Positions 2,628 to 58,150 of a DNA stretch of 60,165 nt are shown one piece after another. The position numbers were made by a program, and so were the translations under genes. Source of the stretch: Escherichia phage vB_Eco_SLUR76. The stretch is taken from sequence record LR025195.1. The stretch is one strand, 5' to 3'. The stretch's first letter is position 1. Each line of letters starts with the position of its first letter. Below the pieces are notes generated by a model. That model worked only from the letters and a program-made list of their open reading frames with translations, was not told the DNA's origin and ran no database searches.

Positions 2628-4970
2628 ATGGAACTGTTTCCCGCTGAAATTAAAGCTTTCCCACAATGGGCGGTCGCCGATGCGGACAAAAAGCCGCTGG
2701 TATGGGATAGCGATATTGGACGTTTGATGGCGGCGGACGTTACCGATCCGGATATGCTTATGACGTTTGAAGCTGCCAAAGGTTGCGCCGCTCATTTCAA
2801 TAAACCTTATATTGGATTCGTGCTTACTGCACAAGACCCGTTCACCTGCATCGACCTGGATGTGAAGAACGCAACCAATGAACCTGATCCCAAGAAACAC
2901 ACGACGCCAGAGCAGTTGCGCCGCTTCGAACAGATCATGACTGCGTTCGATACTTACACCGAAGTAAGTCGCTCAGGCCTGGGTGTCCACCTGTGGTTAA
3001 GAGGTAACATCGGTAAAGGTCGTCGACGTGATGGTGTCGAGGTTTATAGTCAGGAGCGTTTTATTATCTGCACGGGCAATCCTGTCTACAACAAACCAGT
3101 TGCAGAACGTGATCATTACCTTACTATGCTTGTGAATGAAATTGATCTTCAGCGCAAGACATATGAAATTGAACTGGTAGAAAAAGATCCGGTAGAAGAT
3201 GATGCAACTATTCATCAGCGCGCACTTGAAGCAGATAACGGCGATAAGTATGCGCGGTTATTCAATGGTGAATGGGTTGAAATGGGTTTCCCTTCCCAGT
3301 CTGAAGCAGATCTTGCCCTTATTTCTATGTATGCATTCTACACGGAAAGTAATGAGCAATGTCGTCGTCTGTTCCGTTATAGCGCACTGGGCAAACGTGA
3401 GAAGGCTAATAAGAACAATGTTCATATTGACCGTTGCTTGCGCATGTGTCGCGGTCGCATGGAGCGTGAGCGCATTGCCCAGGAAAACGTAGCGGCGCTG
3501 GCGCGGGATTATGCTGCCCGTATGCAAGCGGCACACAGTGCAATGCAGCAGGTAGCGGAAATGCCCGTAACTGTTGAAACAACACAGGGGCAGACAGTAG
3601 TTGCAGAAAGTACATCTATTGATGCAACCGCTATTGACTGGCCGCCGGGACTTGCTGGGGAGCTTGCGAAGTACATCTACAAAGCATCCGTCCGACCAGT
3701 GAAAGAAATTTCTATTGTGACAGCACTAGGATTTATGGCTGGTGTATGCGGGAAGGTTTGGCAGATTCCACAATCGGGTCTTAATGGATATTTCGTCCTT
3801 ATTGCTCGTTCTGGTGTTGGTAAAGAAACGTTGAACAGTGGGCTATCTAATATAGTTAGCCAGCTTCAGGAACCGTTTCCGCAGATTCATAGCTTTGTAT
3901 CCTTTGACCGATGCGCTTCCGGCTCCGCACTGCGTAAATCTTTTGCGGACAAACAATCTTTTATCAACTTGAACGGTGAGTTTGGTAAGATTATTAAAGC
4001 AATGGCTACGGCGCCAGCAGGTTCACCGATGCAAAGCTTCAAGAACGACCTTACCGATGTTTATCAAAAGTCCGGTCAGATGTCTATTGTCGGTGGTATG
4101 TCTTATTCTGATAAGGCTAATAATACGGAAGCTCAACAAGGTGTGGCCTATAGCATCATGGGCGAAACGACACCGGATACGTTCTTTGAAGCATTAACCC
4201 GTGAAATGATGGAGGATGGTTTCTTATCCCGTTTCCATGTTGTCCGCTATGAAGGGGATCGACCGCCTTTAAACAAGAACCAGCAGACTACAATGGATCA
4301 GCATTTGCGGGATATGGTGTGTCATCTTGTTAACCACACCTTAGTCGCAATGGCAAAGCATCAAAGTATTGAAGTGCAGTTTAGCCCGGATGCGGAAGCA
4401 TTATGCGATCAGTTTAACGATGAATGTGACCGTAATATTAACGCAACCAAAGACGAAGCGATCCGTCAGCCGTGGAACCGTGCGCACCTGAAGGTGTTAC
4501 GTCTATCCGCCCTGTTAGCTGTGGGAGAAAACTGGATCAATCCGGTTGTGCAGACCTATCATGTTCAATGGGCCTTGGACTTTGTGCGTCATGGACAGGA
4601 TATCATTATGAAGGAATGGCATAGTGGGGGTATTGGTACTAATGACGAAGCTCGTATCCGTACTATGTGCCAGGTTTGTGTCAATTATCTAACTAAAGAT
4701 TGGGTGAAAGTTAAACGTGTAGATCTGCGTAAGGAAGGAATTATCACGAGGGGTGATATTACTACTCGTCTTGCAAGTAAGTCCGCGTTTAAAAACTATC
4801 ACCACGGATTGTCCGCAGCAATTGAGTCTACGATCAAGGAGATGGTTGCTATGGGTGCTCTTGTTCCGGTAACACGGGAGGAGACTATCAAACTGGGATT
4901 CACTGGCGCAGCTTGGCGCATTACGCAAGATGTTGAAGGTATTATAGCAAACTTAGGAGAAGAGGAATAA
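2628..4970 (+). CDS. Primase-polymerase (archaeo-eukaryotic primase fold) with C-terminal P-loop/helicase-like domain
   Basis: AEP motifs CIDLDV (DxD), SGLGVHLW (SGxGxH), ERFIICTG; later P-loop-like ARSGVGKET; 780 aa. Confidence 0.6.
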   Translation: MELFPAEIKAFPQWAVADADKKPLVWDSDIGRLMAADVTDPDMLMTFEAAKGCAAHFNKPYIGFVLTAQDPFTCIDLDVKNATNEPDPKKHTTPEQLRRFEQIMTAFDTYTEVSRSGLGVHLWLRGNIGKGRRRDGVEVYSQERFIICTGNPVYNKPVAERDHYLTMLVNEIDLQRKTYEIELVEKDPVEDDATIHQRALEADNGDKYARLFNGEWVEMGFPSQSEADLALISMYAFYTESNEQCRRLFRYSALGKREKANKNNVHIDRCLRMCRGRMERERIAQENVAALARDYAARMQAAHSAMQQVAEMPVTVETTQGQTVVAESTSIDATAIDWPPGLAGELAKYIYKASVRPVKEISIVTALGFMAGVCGKVWQIPQSGLNGYFVLIARSGVGKETLNSGLSNIVSQLQEPFPQIHSFVSFDRCASGSALRKSFADKQSFINLNGEFGKIIKAMATAPAGSPMQSFKNDLTDVYQKSGQMSIVGGMSYSDKANNTEAQQGVAYSIMGETTPDTFFEALTREMMEDGFLSRFHVVRYEGDRPPLNKNQQTTMDQHLRDMVCHLVNHTLVAMAKHQSIEVQFSPDAEALCDQFNDECDRNINATKDEAIRQPWNRAHLKVLRLSALLAVGENWINPVVQTYHVQWALDFVRHGQDIIMKEWHSGGIGTNDEARIRTMCQVCVNYLTKDWVKVKRVDLRKEGIITRGDITTRLASKSAFKNYHHGLSAAIESTIKEMVAMGALVPVTREETIKLGFTGAAWRITQDVEGIIANLGEEE

Positions 4971-4996
4971 ATAAAGGGCCGAAAGGCCCTTTATTG
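4971..4996. terminator. Bidirectional rho-independent terminator
   Basis: Perfect hairpin aaagggcc-gaaa-ggcccttt flanked by an A-run and a T-run, between convergent genes. Confidence 0.7.
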
Positions 4997-5221
4997 TTAG
5001 TTAAGGTAGTAATCATCGACGTCGTACCTTGCCATAATTTCGGATGCTTCCGCCGCACTTTCCGCTTCTTCATAAGCTTTCTCAGCGTCATCATAAGTAC
5101 CGTAATACATCCAACCTTCACCCATTGGACGGATGTATGCTTCAAATTTACCAGTACGCGGGTGACGTACAACTTTATAATCCGCGCCCATTGTGCTATA
5201 TACTTTATTCAGCATGACCAT
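4997..5221 (-). CDS. Hypothetical protein
   Basis: ORF with RBS cggagga 8 nt upstream of ATG on the minus strand. Confidence 0.6.
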   Translation of the reverse strand: MVMLNKVYSTMGADYKVVRHPRTGKFEAYIRPMGEGWMYYGTYDDAEKAYEEAESAAEASEIMARYDVDDYYLN

Positions 5222-5379
5222 TTTGTAATCCTCCGCTCTGTTTATGAGTTAATAGTACAGCTAGACGGATCAGAGGTAAAGGCAAATCGTGCTATTTTAT
5301 AGATGCATTTCAAGTCTAAAGTTGTTGCACACATCGCAAGTCCTGTTATACTTACAGCATAAAGTTAACGGAGGGAACA

Positions 5380-5457
5380 ATGTTCGAGCTTTTAAAATTA
5401 TTTGCGGGTGCTATTTTCGTAGCTGGTTATTTCTGGTTTATGTATATTCTGTGAGGT
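5380..5457 (+). CDS. Small hydrophobic peptide (25 aa)
   Basis: Strong RBS acggaggg then ATG; MFELLKLFAGAIFVAGYFWFMYIL; not in the ORF track because it is under 60 aa. Confidence 0.3.
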
Positions 5458-5462
5458 GTAAG

Positions 5463-5660
5463 ATGTCTCAACAATTATTCAATATTGCTTTACAAGCAAT
5501 AATAGATACCGCAAAGCAGGCTTATATTGAAGGTTATAATCAGTGCTTAATTAGTGCTGCTTATTCACCTGAAGAACCTTCACAAATCGAGGAAGACTGG
5601 CAAAACTCTTCTGTAAAAGCTGCCTGCGACAGAATGATTCAAAACTTAAGGAGTAACTAA
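5463..5660 (+). CDS. Hypothetical protein
   Basis: ATG at 5463 after tgaggtgtaag; in-frame part of track ORF 5289..5660. Confidence 0.5.
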   Translation: MSQQLFNIALQAIIDTAKQAYIEGYNQCLISAAYSPEEPSQIEEDWQNSSVKAACDRMIQNLRSN

Positions 5661-52468: not shown

Positions 52469-52504
52469 GTTCCCTCCAAATAAAAGGGGCTAACGCCCCG
52501 TCAG

Positions 52505-52942
52505 TTAAAGTACCATTGCAATAGCGCGGTTAATTACGTCATCGGTATAGGGCATCATGCCATTTTCATGACGAATGATTGCTTTCACCAATCCTGACAT
52601 AATTGCCTTGTCGAAGACATTAATTGGATCGTTAGGTTGAACACCAATTGCTTTGGCAACAGAGCGAATATACGATTCCGTATCGTTTTCGTTAGGCGGT
52701 GCCCAGCGAGCGATGATTTCACGTACAGTGTCGATGTTTTTCTTACCCACATTGGGTAAGCCTTCACGTTTGGTGTAGTTTGTCAGGATTTTCGCTAGTG
52801 CGCGAATGCCGTAAATCGGTTGCGTGAATTGCGCAAAAGATTTATCGGTTCGCTTATCAACAGGAACCAAGCCCTGCCAATTATCACCCCAGCGAATATT
52901 GCCTGGATTGTTATTACGAATACCACGAGGTTGAAGTGCCAT
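52505..52942 (-). CDS. Putative endolysin (unassigned family)
   Basis: Soluble 145-aa protein with RBS ggaggagg, directly upstream of the holin and spanins; motif NNPGNIRWGD; family not identified. Confidence 0.4.
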   Translation of the reverse strand: MALQPRGIRNNNPGNIRWGDNWQGLVPVDKRTDKSFAQFTQPIYGIRALAKILTNYTKREGLPNVGKKNIDTVREIIARWAPPNENDTESYIRSVAKAIGVQPNDPINVFDKAIMSGLVKAIIRHENGMMPYTDDVINRAIAMVL

Positions 52943-53027
52943 AGATAAAGCCTCCTCCGCTTGATTTAGGCTTGATAATATTAACAGGCTTTGATCAAGA
53001 GGAGCAAGCTGAATTGGATATGACGAA

Positions 53028-53297
53028 TTATCTATTAAGGAATGCCAGAACGCAGGACTTAACGAATAATGAGCCCCCTTCGCCAAGATACTTTTCTGAA
53101 TATACTGAGTAATCGTTAACCCCATCCCAAAAGATAACAAGGCCATTAGTTTGCAGACTATCAATAATCGCAATAGCTACCTCCTCACAATTAGTGAAGA
53201 AAATATCATCGTTCACTTGGACATAGTTATGAAAATCTTTTATCCTCCAGTTTAATTGTGAAGGTAAAACATCAAAAACTCTTACGTTCAGTTCCAT
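53028..53297 (-). CDS. Hypothetical protein
   Basis: ORF between the HNH gene and the lysis cassette; weak RBS. Confidence 0.35.
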   Translation of the reverse strand: MELNVRVFDVLPSQLNWRIKDFHNYVQVNDDIFFTNCEEVAIAIIDSLQTNGLVIFWDGVNDYSVYSEKYLGEGGSLFVKSCVLAFLNR

Positions 53298-53763
53298 GGT
53301 TCTCGTGGTATTCATATACAATCTCAGCATTTTTACGAGCATTGACGGCATCTTCAAAATTAATAAAAGAGCCAAGTCTTACTTGACCGACCTGTGTATT
53401 AATATAAGCTATCCATCTTTTATTCCTTTTGTGATAGCAAACACCAGTAATACCAGACTTATTAAGCTTAGATCTGGTTACGTTCCTATTATTCAATGTA
53501 CTTGTAACTAATCTAAGATTCTCTATCCTATCATCTCCAGGAACGTGATTAATATGATCTATTTGCATATCTTTGGGAATAGGACCATTATGCATTTCCC
53601 ATACTATACGATGCCTTAGATAGAAACTACAACCGCATCGTATTTTGACGTAACCCCTCTTTGTAGCATGACCAGCAAGTGCTCCTGGTATAACTCTACC
53701 ACCTCTAGAAGTTTTCCAGAACAGCTTTCCATCCAAATAAGTGAATATGGAAGACCATTCCAT
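53272..53763 (-). CDS. HNH homing endonuclease with AP2-like DNA-binding domain
   Basis: HNH motif DHINHVPGDDRIENL; C-terminal ITGVCYHKRNKRWIAYI...EDAVNARKNAE resembles an AP2 domain. Confidence 0.75.
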   Translation of the reverse strand: MEWSSIFTYLDGKLFWKTSRGGRVIPGALAGHATKRGYVKIRCGCSFYLRHRIVWEMHNGPIPKDMQIDHINHVPGDDRIENLRLVTSTLNNRNVTRSKLNKSGITGVCYHKRNKRWIAYINTQVGQVRLGSFINFEDAVNARKNAEIVYEYHENHGTERKSF

Positions 53764-53764
53764 T

Positions 53765-54229
53765 TTAAAAAGCCTCAAATGATATTGTATCAACTCCCAG
53801 GAATGCGCATGTGGTGTGTTTAATTGCCAGCTCAATAGCTTCGCTTGCGCTTGCACCAGCGGCTAATGCACCAGCAGCAAACACACAACCGCTACCCTCA
53901 GATCCCCATCCATCCAGCATGGGCTCGCTCAAAGTACCATCATTATAAATAAAATGGCAAGTACCTTCCGGAGTGACAGCAAGACCGCAAGTTTGCCCGT
54001 AATCATCATCTTTACTGTAAAGTTTAATATCAGGGAACTTAACAGGTTCCGCGCTATTAAAATAACGCAACACCTGATCGGTAAATGCTGTCAAACCGCA
54101 CAAGCCCAGTAAAAACCGTCCACGATGTCCATTCACGCTATGAACTTTCTTATAAGCAGTCACAGCTTCCCCGCGCATAACGCCACGGTCCGCAGCTAAT
54201 ACTTTTCCATCAAACGCAATTGTGGTCAT
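53765..54229 (-). CDS. Ntn-hydrolase peptidase, HslV / proteasome beta-subunit-like
   Basis: N-terminus MTTIAFDGKVLAADRG matches the HslV TTI N-terminal nucleophile; GSEGSG glycine loop; RBS aggaaag. Confidence 0.5.
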   Translation of the reverse strand: MTTIAFDGKVLAADRGVMRGEAVTAYKKVHSVNGHRGRFLLGLCGLTAFTDQVLRYFNSAEPVKFPDIKLYSKDDDYGQTCGLAVTPEGTCHFIYNDGTLSEPMLDGWGSEGSGCVFAAGALAAGASASEAIELAIKHTTCAFLGVDTISFEAF

Positions 54230-54411
54230 TTAACTTTCCTTTGGTCTTGGATAATAACAATGCATAAAACAAATAGAATAAGACAGATGCAAAGCCCTGT
54301 ACTTGCAAAGATTCGGATAACCGTGGAAGGTTGTTCGACTACTGTATAGGTATAAAGCCCAGCGAACATCAACGTCGCAAATAAAAACAATCCGGCGTAT
54401 AGTTTGGTCAT
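54226..54411 (-). CDS. Small membrane protein
   Basis: Two TM helices; RBS agagggg. Confidence 0.5.
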   Translation of the reverse strand: MTKLYAGLFLFATLMFAGLYTYTVVEQPSTVIRIFASTGLCICLILFVLCIVIIQDQRKVK

Positions 54412-54473
54412 TGTGTACCCCTCTTATTCGATGGGTACACAATACAATGAAGGGTTATGTGATAGCAAGAAAA

Positions 54474-54896
54474 TTAATAAGGCAGGATTTCAACGTCTTT
54501 GACCCAAGTATGAATGATAAAAGCTCCAGGCTCTTCAGGATCTTGATCCGGACCAACATAGAACTTTTTACCTTCCCATCCTTTAATTGGATCATGCACA
54601 ATAAACTTGTGATCCGTCATATCAATCACAATCTGGTGCAATGCGCCAGGAATATTAAGACTTGGCACCGTGCACAGGAACAAACCTCCCATATGCAAAG
54701 TTTCACGCCCACCACCTTCTGAACAATGATGCCGGACGCCGTTTTTAGTCAAATATTCGCTGATAGTGATTTCCCAGTTGTTATAATAACGACTATGAAA
54801 TTCCTCAATGACCTTCTCAACAGGTTTATTAAGGATCATTGCCAAACACGCAGAAACGCATGTATTCAACGTTGGCTGTTTAACGTGTTTTATCAT
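54474..54896 (-). CDS. Papain-like cysteine peptidase, C39-like
   Basis: QPTLNTCVSACLAMIL resembles the C39 motif Q-x-x-x-x-DCGxACLxM, with downstream His; RBS ggagaa. Confidence 0.45.
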   Translation of the reverse strand: MIKHVKQPTLNTCVSACLAMILNKPVEKVIEEFHSRYYNNWEITISEYLTKNGVRHHCSEGGGRETLHMGGLFLCTVPSLNIPGALHQIVIDMTDHKFIVHDPIKGWEGKKFYVGPDQDPEEPGAFIIHTWVKDVEILPY

Positions 54897-55099
54897 ACAA
54901 GAGGTTCTCCGGTATAGTTACACCAGCAGCGTCGAGCGCGAGCCCAAGCACCCAATAAACCTTTAGGCGTGCTCTTACCCATCGCGTATTTAACGCTAAT
55001 TTCGTCAAATACCTGGGCAGTTCGACGCATAGCATGGTCTTCCGGTAAACCGTCCCGATCCGCACGCTCTATCATTTGTTTAGCTAATGGAGTTTCCAT
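54893..55099 (-). CDS. Hypothetical protein
   Basis: Coupled small ORF. Confidence 0.45.
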   Translation of the reverse strand: METPLAKQMIERADRDGLPEDHAMRRTAQVFDEISVKYAMGKSTPKGLLGAWARARRCWCNYTGEPLV

Positions 55100-55100
55100 C

Positions 55101-55571
55101 TTATGCCTCGTATATGACTTCCGGCTCGTTATTATAAGGACGCAGCAGCAAACGCGCTACCAGCGCCGTACGCTCGCTTAACCCTTGCGGATGTACAAAC
55201 CCAACGAACTGGTAATGACAGCCGCGCAGGTGGTGCAAGCTCTTAGCACAATGACACGCTTCCAAACGCAGTGTCTCACCCGACTGCCATTTAACCACAA
55301 TAGTAGAGCTCGCAGTCATATTGATTTCTACATCACCGATATCAATCTGAAGATATAATAAATCCTCAAGAATATTGCGGACGTAAACGAGGATCTGTGA
55401 TGTGGGCATAACAATAAGCCCGTTCCAGTCTTTCCCGCGCCCCAGTCCACAATAACGCGCAAAATTACAGACTAACTGAGTCTCTGTAACCTGTTTTACT
55501 TCAAACGACTTCTTCAGTTGGCAGTCTTTGGACTCGTCCATTGCATCAACAATAGTTTTAACGTCAGCCAT
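55101..55571 (-). CDS. Hypothetical protein (Cys/His-containing)
   Basis: RBS ggagtaa; CHCAKSLHHLRGCH cluster. Confidence 0.5.
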   Translation of the reverse strand: MADVKTIVDAMDESKDCQLKKSFEVKQVTETQLVCNFARYCGLGRGKDWNGLIVMPTSQILVYVRNILEDLLYLQIDIGDVEINMTASSTIVVKWQSGETLRLEACHCAKSLHHLRGCHYQFVGFVHPQGLSERTALVARLLLRPYNNEPEVIYEA

Positions 55572-55574
55572 TAT

Positions 55575-55967
55575 TTACTCCGCTAAAGTGTAAGGAATAC
55601 CGGATGCTTTAATCCGTCTGTACATATCCATAGTACCAGCTCCGCCAGGAAACACAATAGCGTGATCTGGTTTAGGATCAGTATCCAGCATTAATTGGTT
55701 GCGGTAAGCGCCTGCTTGTGCATTATAAGCACCTTTGGCATTATACCGTATCTTGGTATTTGGTAAGGAAAGATTGTCCCACGGGGCAGGGAATGCTTCT
55801 GTCTTAATACCGTTGCGCTCCGCCCAATGTGCGCAAATCCGGTCAACACCGTCAGCGTCACCGTGGCGAAGTGTGGTTATCCTTCTTTGCATATGCAGCT
55901 TATCCAATTGAGCGTAAATATACTCCACATGCTTAAAATCTCGACCTCCGGTGACGACTAATAGCAT
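55575..55967 (-). CDS. SLOG / DprA-like Rossmann-fold protein (DUF2493-like)
   Basis: LVVTGGRDF...HGDADGVD...VFPGGAGT pattern; RBS ggagaag. Confidence 0.4.
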   Translation of the reverse strand: MLLVVTGGRDFKHVEYIYAQLDKLHMQRRITTLRHGDADGVDRICAHWAERNGIKTEAFPAPWDNLSLPNTKIRYNAKGAYNAQAGAYRNQLMLDTDPKPDHAIVFPGGAGTMDMYRRIKASGIPYTLAE

Positions 55968-57018: not shown

Positions 57019-57069
57019 AACAACCTCCAGATAATTAAGGGCTCCGTAGAGCCCATTATAGATTGATAA

Positions 57070-57360: not shown

Positions 57361-57602
57361 TCTTCTTGCTCCTCTACATATTTAGTGACACATTTTTGAA
57401 AATTAAGAACGATATTTTTCTCTTTTACGGAATGAAATTTAACACGTTCTGGACAGATAATCCAGCCTTCAAAACGTTGAGTAGCGTCATTCCATGCTGC
57501 CCGACCATAATACCCGCGATATGGGCCTAATCGCATTGCATTTACCTCTGTAACCACATTGCTGGAGGTGCTGGGTGCAGCGCTTGCACTGGAGTCGCAC
57601 AT
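57351..57602 (-). CDS. Hypothetical protein
   Basis: ORF in the early minus-strand operon. Confidence 0.5.
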   Translation of the reverse strand: MCDSSASAAPSTSSNVVTEVNAMRLGPYRGYYGRAAWNDATQRFEGWIICPERVKFHSVKEKNIVLNFQKCVTKYVEEQEECV

Positions 57603-57859
57603 AAATACCTCCTCGATGCTCTAAAAACAGGTGTGAACTGATAGAAATTGGTTGCATCCGCTTAAAGATGATAGCTATGGAGCAGCTACAAGACGAATTA
57701 TACGTTGACGACTCAGAATTTACTACCAAAATCCATATATTTAGAAAGGATGAGTGCAATATATTCAAAAAGAAGGTAGGTGGGGTCATGGATGTAGGTG
57801 GATAGGGATGTGACAGGTGAGATTTAGGCAAGGACTTACTATCAGGATAGACAGGGCAC

Positions 57860-58010
57860 GCCCCAGCGATCCAAGTACCTGGAAAAGGATGGGTCGGGTC
57901 GCGCGGCTGGGCCTGCGTGGGTCTGTGTGCGCTGTGCGAGCTGTGCGCGACGCTGTGCGTCTGTTTCGCCCGAGCTAATGCATTACCATTACCTATGTAC
58001 ATTAGCTCGC
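57860..58010. repeat. GC-rich tandem repeats (GCTGTGCG-like units, at least 4 copies) plus 10-bp perfect palindrome cgagctaatg / cattagctcg
   Basis: Seen directly inside a 550-bp non-coding stretch between two minus-strand genes. Confidence 0.6.
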
Positions 58011-58150
58011 TAGCGTGGCGCTGTGTGCGTTATTCAATGTGGTTAATTATTGCATAATAGATAGCACATAGTAACACAGTATACAGTGTCAGTGATAATA
58101 TTATCTTCCAGTGATTCATAGCGACCTCACAGTTTAATATTGAATTGTTA

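Follow-up and report, generated by a model that had tools for sequence, protein, structure and literature searches.

The genome of Escherichia phage vB_Eco_SLUR76 (LR025195.1), analysed here over its whole stretch of 60,165 nucleotides (the window), carries three predicted enzyme genes on its minus strand between positions 53765 and 55967, and the question raised by this locus is whether they serve one common purpose or merely lie side by side. They encode a 154-aa HslV-like protein of the proteasome family of N-terminal nucleophile (Ntn) threonine hydrolases, called PPH below (53765–54229), a 140-aa C39-like papain-fold cysteine peptidase (54474–54896), and a 130-aa SLOG protein of the YAcAr family (55575–55967). 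A preliminary description, made from the sequence alone, had taken them for an early module directed against the host or its defences. In our analysis the best explanation, still a tentative one, is that they are three independently evolving, catalytically intact accessory enzymes at the promoter-proximal end of the lysis/packaging/structural arm of the genome, and not one machine.

The genome is complete (60,165 bp) and belongs to the genus Seuratvirus in the Queuovirinae. By Megablast, the whole window matches LR025198.1 (Escherichia phage vB_Eco_SLUR26), in which the record coordinates equal those of the window plus 2, and ~33 close relatives show 90–98% DNA identity across the region. GC skew and annotation separate two arms. 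Replication and 7-deazaguanine modification are encoded in the plus-strand arm. The minus-strand arm starts at a divergent intergenic region near 59 kb and runs from a block of small open reading frames (ORFs) through the cluster, an HNH gene with a small ORF, and the endolysin, holin and spanin-like genes to those for the small terminase (terS), large terminase (terL), portal, scaffold and major head protein, followed by neck and tail genes.

The gene content of the cluster agrees with what had been described. The six ORFs lie on the minus strand at the expected positions and are all annotated coding sequences in LR025198.1. The motifs quoted earlier are found in them, a membrane ORF (ORF61) and a Cys/His-rich ORF (ORF156) do lie among the enzymes, and the strong ribosome-binding sites are present as Shine-Dalgarno-like GGAG, GAGG or AGGA upstream of every ORF. 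At several junctions, including that between the ORF61 stop and the PPH start, stop and start overlap as ATGA. We have further calculated the ratios of non-synonymous to synonymous change (pN/pS) against CAjan and one IMG/VR relative, and they fall between 0.01 and 0.1 for the SLOG (0.03), C39-like and HslV-like proteins. All six ORFs are real genes, and the three enzyme genes are under strong purifying selection. The three enzyme folds that had been proposed are also borne out by profile and family searches, with structure prediction in addition for the C39-like protein; since the catalytic residues are conserved, all three are very probably active, catalytically competent enzymes.

The synteny of the trio across relatives, which had been named as a check on its unity, gives a divided answer: it is kept within one collinear siphophage group and lost elsewhere. 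The neighbourhood of C39-like and PPH genes is confined to Seuratvirus, Nonagvirus and Craquatrovirus, and SLOG joins in Seuratvirus and Craquatrovirus only; in the Nonagvirus JenK1 the order is C39-like, a helix-turn-helix (HTH) protein and PPH, with no SLOG. Within this group of ~57–61 kb genomes, the enzymes stay constant as a core while the rest of the segment is fluid. Distant PPH loci were collected by a motif and tblastn scan of IMG/VR, which yielded 78 loci (61 non-redundant), with genes called by a same-strand ORF selection that forces the retention of PPH. A C39-like gene occurs within 7 kb of PPH in none of these 61 loci and SLOG in one, which speaks against the claim of a module. 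In addition, the C39-like and SLOG families are large and uncharacterised, and are typical of early or DNA-metabolism regions.

PPH elsewhere sits mostly inside packaging/head operons. Within four genes of PPH, the 61 loci contain 80 same-strand ORFs of at least 400 aa, among which we have counted 25 portals, ~20 large terminases and 6 coat proteins, and no more than a handful of replication or other proteins. The portals are of the P22-like, SU10, DUF4055 and T7 types. That is, a portal lies no more than four genes from PPH in 25 of the 61 loci (41%), against a chance expectation of ~11%, which is our own rough estimate from eight neighbouring positions among ~70 genes. In four loci a P22-like portal follows PPH one to three genes downstream, with a confirmed TerL upstream in one of them. 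The mid-size genes downstream are mostly those of terS, scaffold, head-morphogenesis, major-head and neck proteins. The window genome, JenK1 and PSTCR4 likewise have lysis-terS-terL-portal downstream of PPH in the same orientation. Overall, this context suggests that PPH belongs to a late, packaging/head phase. The pattern has not been noticed in the published description of the family, which says of the context only 'flanked by phage genes' (PMC8665760), and it gives a hypothesis that can be tested.

Several observations weigh against the explanation of independent genes or against a late phase for PPH. In PSTCR4, a Providencia phage of the genus Craquatrovirus, the SLOG, C39-like and PPH genes are adjacent, with stop/start overlaps, and stand just before lysozyme-holin-terS-terL-portal. 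When Seuratvirus is compared with Craquatrovirus, conservation within the segment is detectable for the three enzyme genes only (28–39% identity), and some linkage among them may be real. In Xp10, PPH is gene 50L in a leftward block together with the RNA polymerase inhibitor p7, and this block is presumably early. The myophages PEi21 and KLPPOU148, from Yokohamavirus and Jedunavirus, have PPH in a small cassette opposing the surrounding tail genes, and in three of the distant loci a classical head-maturation protease (phrog_595) stands beside it. The IMG/VR loci were picked through the N-terminal motif MT[TC]IA[WF]D, as the best 80 of 144 hits, so the sample may be biased. Finally, we have found no biochemical data on the three families, and no expression data for any Queuovirinae phage in the literature searched.

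Part of these observations would suit an early host-takeover or anti-defence module, as had been proposed at the outset. SLOG would then act on a nucleotide signal of host immunity, either by sequestering or by sensing it; a precedent is Thoeris ThsA, whose SLOG domain binds isomers of cyclic ADP-ribose (cADPR). The targets of the two peptidases would be proteins or conjugates of the host defence, such as ubiquitin-like conjugates ending in Gly-Gly, which they would destroy or process. In its favour, the three genes of PSTCR4 adjoin each other and are coupled in translation, and strong conservation is seen for all three; against it, they do not stay together beyond one group of collinear phages. 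Also in its favour are the leftward block of Xp10, presumably early, in which PPH is found, and the moron-like cassettes of opposite orientation that hold it in two genera of myophages; against it, PPH genes lie mainly within packaging/head operons. As regards position, the cluster is flanked by the divergent intergenic region and its small-ORF block on one side and by the lysis genes on the other, where accessory genes are typically found; the arm is called late in phage 9g. Distant C39-like genes are found near genes for a methylase, a pentapeptide protein, a ParB-PAPS reductase and Mom, with no PPH or SLOG beside them, and this is typical anti-restriction company. Looking for direct support, we have found no match to the PADLOC defence models, no mention of SLOG, protease, peptidase or proteasome in the AntiDefenseFinder paper (by word search), and no functional report on the three proteins in the literature. 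We consider a module of this kind rather doubtful.

The word 'early' in the same description is also unproven. The only relative with a published interpretation is phage 9g, for which the replication arm is labelled early/middle and the whole lysis/structural arm late, with divergent promoters and a regulator gene predicted at the start of the late arm (PMC4276943). This label comes from prediction and not from measurement, and the cluster might belong to the middle or to the late genes. We have also counted promoter-like and terminator-like sites. Promoter-like matches number 22, as compared with a mean of 22.0 in shuffled sequences; they show no excess and are therefore silent on timing. Terminator-like sites number 12 against a shuffled mean of 7.9 (sd 2.7), a modest excess.

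Considering that PPH is so often accompanied by head genes, a role in head assembly has to be weighed as well. It had been argued that no prohead protease is evident in the head module and that the location of the cluster speaks against capsid maturation. The first statement is right: the genes for the portal (DUF4055), the scaffold (a 290-aa ORF matching phrog_206, 'head scaffolding protein') and the major head protein (phrog_247) are present without any match to a protease family. The second is weak, since PPH in other phages is strongly linked to the genes of the terminase, portal, scaffold and coat, and since in this genome lysis-terS-terL-portal follow it on the same strand.

One proposal is that PPH, perhaps with help from the C39-like peptidase, is the missing morphogenetic protease of the phage, which would trim or remove scaffold, portal, coat or tape-measure proteins; it would then form a new class of maturation protease for portal-scaffold-coat heads. 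The absence of a classical prohead protease and the position upstream of the packaging genes both speak for such a role, as do the frequency of portals within four genes of PPH, the four loci in which it lies just upstream of a P22-like portal, and the scaffold and head-morphogenesis proteins among its neighbours. However, portal-scaffold-coat heads such as those of P22, T7 and SPP1 assemble and mature without a protease. Because the window has the same layout as P22 and T7, the missing prohead protease needs no explanation and nothing is really 'missing', although its absence is also compatible with a role of PPH. The contexts in Xp10, PEi21 and KLPPOU148 are non-structural. Moreover, since three PPH loci carry a classical maturation protease too, PPH is not simply a replacement for it. 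The C39-like gene, for its part, was never found in a structural module among the distant loci examined. On balance we hold this proposal to be unlikely. Its most specific form is quite improbable: PPH would be a self-compartmentalising Thr protease of a new morphogenetic class, expressed with the packaging/head genes and degrading or trimming scaffold, portal or internal proteins where heads have no classical prohead protease, and it would share its pathway with the neighbouring C39-like peptidase in the Queuovirinae-like lineage.

Under the preferred explanation of independent accessory enzymes, each protein has to be understood by itself. PPH is matched by the Pfam Proteasome family only at E 0.015 (15.4 bits, below the gathering cut-off of 22.4), and by PHROG 1040, 'peptidase HslV family', at E 5.8e-32. 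Single-sequence searches of the PDB returned nothing useful for PPH, the C39-like protein or SLOG. A profile of the PPH family finds HslV chains first (E 5e-8), then BPH and proteasome beta subunits. In an alignment of 16 homologues with identity down to 31%, M1-T2, D14, G45, G112 and G114 are invariant, the last two within the G112-S-G114 present in PPH, and K28 is kept in 14 of the 16. In the predicted model, one helix (47–58) followed by a loop takes the place of the H1/H2 pair of HslV. Besides it there are just two helices, at 115–123 and 128–137, and the chain ends after a strand at 146–149, without S12/H5. The published PPH clade is described as proteins of ~140 residues in tailed phages and prophages, without H2 and S12/H5 and with no known function (PMC8665760). 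By its sequence and predicted model, the window protein fits this description and is not an HslV in the strict sense.

As a mechanism, the host methionine aminopeptidase would expose Thr2 of PPH as the nucleophile, and the protein would form rings enclosing the active sites, by analogy with HslV and BPH. Its genomic context points to an action in the late packaging/head phase, where the substrate might be a phage scaffold, portal or internal protein. A different proposal is that PPH works through the host, either docking onto E. coli HslU as a hybrid ATP-dependent protease or blocking host HslUV. In favour of this, no AAA+ partner is encoded next to PPH. Against it, PPH has no H2, a helix that in HslV is one of the pair lying on the surface turned towards HslU. 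PPH also occurs in phages of many hosts with high-GC genomes, and its next closest relative, BPH, has no known ATPase partner (PMC5777263). We regard a role through HslU as very improbable.

The C39-like protein is predicted to have a papain-like fold, to which C39 domains come closest, and an active site made of Gln/Cys/His/Asp. The predicted residues are Gln7, which would form the oxyanion hole, Cys13, His87 and Asp102. They are kept in 148–151 of 151 sequences (when the 150 best cluster representatives are aligned) at the spacing typical of C39. The Pfam family C39 (PF03412) reaches only E 0.051 (13.8 bits, cut-off 22), over residues 3–24 around the catalytic Cys, and neither sequence nor family profile finds a PDB chain for the protein, including any C39 chain. 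The viral structural neighbours are all uncharacterised. The family itself is large: its profile matches 1082 clusters at 50% identity, with a median length of 147.5 aa in the best 150, and as phrog_4049 it occurs in 196 phage records, including Ackermannviridae and Vibrio and Pseudomonas phages.

We have found no ABC transporter partner for the C39-like protein. When all 718 ORFs of the window were scanned for double-glycine leaders with the pattern E[LIVMF]xx[LIVMFAT]xG[GAS], the only match was a 40-aa ORF antisense to the scaffold gene, so that a cognate leader substrate in the genome was rejected as having no credible candidate. That is, the protein has, as far as the model goes, a C39-like fold and chemistry, but it fails the sequence and context criteria of C39. 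By structural analogy with double-glycine peptidases, it is probably an endopeptidase that cuts behind a motif of small residues (Gly-Gly-like), in a protein either of the phage or of the host. In VP2 the C39-like gene is near a helicase, and in the Ackermannviridae (Salmonella phage allotria, Kuttervirus, 3980–4429 of the examined locus) it is located between the genes for the large and medium subunits of DNA topoisomerase II.

For SLOG, the family assignment is firm: PF10686 (YAcAr) matches the full length at E 4.9e-18 (65.2 bits, cut-off 28.2) and phrog_289 at E 2.7e-23. The protein contains TGGR, HGDADGVD, AGAYRNQLM and PGGAGT. An alignment of nine diverse phage homologues shows GxAxGxD, AGxxRNxxM and PGGxGT as common motifs and G7, R9, G36, A38, G40, D42, G86, R89, N90, G111 and T112 as invariant. 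Homologues are found in 787 phage records, often annotated as 'DprA-like' or 'GTP-binding domain'. By profile, DprA comes nearest among the solved structures, at E 0.022 and along no more than 42 residues, and the DprA Pfam family does not match.

The LOG family is characterised by the motif PGGxGTxxE with a catalytic Glu. The window protein reads PGGAGTMDM there, with a Met at the Glu position, and since this Glu is absent, it is more likely to be a binder than a LOG-type hydrolase. Most likely, the protein binds a nucleotide or a compound derived from one. Elsewhere, SLOG lies in replication/early-type regions, as in Rockstar (beside DnaB and primase) and in a Vibrio phage (beside an SF3 helicase and a methylase), and in ICP1 a SLOG domain is fused to the helicase HelB. 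The PSTCR4 protein (4968–5483 of the examined locus) carries an N-terminal extension of ~50 residues with CxxC...CxxC, zinc-ribbon-like, which the Seuratvirus protein does not have. A link of the enzymes to 7-deazaguanine modification was also considered, and was rejected on taxonomic spread, because SLOG and C39-like homologues are widespread outside the Queuovirinae (mycobacteriophages, Ackermannviridae, Vibrio phages and others).

The other genes of the cluster are less widely distributed. ORF156 (55101–55571, minus strand), the Cys/His-rich one, matches phrog_25149 only and no Pfam, NCBIfam or PADLOC family. Its homologues occur only in Seuratvirus-like and STP-SP5-like phage contigs (54–99% identity), with C41, C106, C108, H114 and H127 invariant and a conserved stretch LRLEACHCA..LHHLRG. 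A weak match to DpdG (E 0.028) is probably due to chance, and a relationship with DpdG was not accepted; beyond it, NCBIfam and PADLOC searches matched none of the cluster proteins. Seuratvirus genomes differ in whether they have the small accessory ORF68 (54893–55099, minus strand; phrog_27185). CAjan, Seurat and others lack it and have the C39-like gene immediately after ORF156, and relatives without it align to the region in two pieces.

ORF61 (54226–54411, minus strand; phrog_22841, E 4.6e-45) has two hydrophobic segments, as expected of a protein with two transmembrane helices, and is identical in CAjan. Its Shine-Dalgarno sequence and AUG are paired in an RNA hairpin at 54409–54444 on the minus strand (minimum free energy −20.1 kcal/mol, z −3.35), within the 62 nt that separate ORF61 from the C39-like gene. 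Only 1 of 200 shuffled sequences is as stable. As no U-tract follows, it is not a typical intrinsic terminator; judged from the pairing, it could restrict the translation of ORF61 or serve as a processing site. In JenK1 (4651–5004) and Klebsiella phage vB_Kpn2-P2 (4660–5004, both in the examined loci), the gene between C39-like and PPH encodes 114–117 aa with a C-terminal HTH-like segment, and one record annotates this Nonagvirus-type gene as 'late transcriptional activator'.

Directly downstream of PPH lies an HNH/AP2 homing endonuclease gene (53272–53763, minus strand; Pfam HNH_3, E 1e-19). The segment made of this gene and the next small ORF (53028–53763, minus strand) is aligned in only ~5 of 34 related genomes, and we therefore take it for a mobile insertion outside the enzyme set. 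In Xanthomonas phage Xp10, too, the gene immediately after PPH is an HNH gene (50L/49L), and in phage DSL-LC04 one adjoins PPH. Further downstream, the longest ORF of the endolysin (52505–53173, minus strand) starts from TTG and has 222 aa, and the record annotates 145 aa; the shorter start is favoured, since the PHROG similarity begins at residue 69 of the long form. Terminator-like GC-rich hairpins with T-rich tails were observed on the minus strand in the 36-nt gap between endolysin and holin (52486–52499) and, upstream of the cluster, in the small-ORF block (57039–57054; surrounding fold −16.5 kcal/mol, z −2.9). In the GenBank record, ~550 nt at 57603–58150 are without an annotated gene. 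A minus-strand ORF of 171 aa is possible at 57487–58002, and CAjan has small genes annotated at the matching place, as judged by relative position only.

Based on the above analyses, the three enzymes belong to families that are already catalogued, and no system of a new kind is revealed. Since 2021 PPH has been on record as a viral proteasome homologue, and we have found neither a function nor an experimental system for it in the literature. For the phage HslV-like, C39-like and SLOG proteins together, the literature search returned only that 2021 survey of proteasome homologues and incidental mentions. The Seuratvirus comparative genomics paper and the Vid5 paper do not mention the three proteins, and no functional study of the stand-alone C39-like family or the phage YAcAr SLOG family was found. 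The genus contains many isolates on E. coli K-12, including the BASEL phages KurtStettler, SeppeHuegi, WildeMaa and VogelGryff, and therefore all three families are open to simple genetics in a standard host.

Among known systems, HslV (ClpQ) of HslUV is the obvious reference for the first protein, but PPH is ~20 residues shorter, has only ~22% identity to it, is without helix H2 and misses the Pfam Proteasome cut-off, and the phage annotation contains no hslU gene. The published PPH clade is much closer. It shares the length of ~140–155 aa, the Met-Thr start without a propeptide, equivalents of Thr1, Asp17, Lys33 and Gly47 (here T2, D14, K28 and G45), the absence of helix H2 and of the S12/H5 elements, the occurrence in tailed phages and prophages of Proteobacteria, and HslV and BPH as the nearest solved relatives. 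No difference was detected between PPH and the published description of this clade, whose representative is WP_042125023.1.

The C39-like protein resembles the C39 domains of the PCAT/AMS transporters (LahT150, PCAT1, ComA) in its papain-like fold of the same size, in the N-terminal Gln-x5-Cys and in the His and Asp 15 residues apart. It differs from them as a stand-alone, cytoplasmic protein without an ABC transporter or a leader-peptide gene, and in contrast to peptidase family C39 it belongs to a large family of its own, phrog_4049, drawn from phage genomes and public genome and metagenome data. As for SLOG, it is without the Glu of PGGxGTxxE of the LOG enzymes and without the extra domains of DprA, to which its similarity is marginal (E 0.022). 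With the YAcAr family (PF10686, formerly DUF2493), it shares the Gly-rich N-terminal loop, GxAxGxD, PGGxGT and the form of a small stand-alone protein found in many phages, apart from an insertion of ~20 residues (~65–84) which, among the nine aligned proteins, it has in common only with that of Klebsiella phage phi_KPN_H2.

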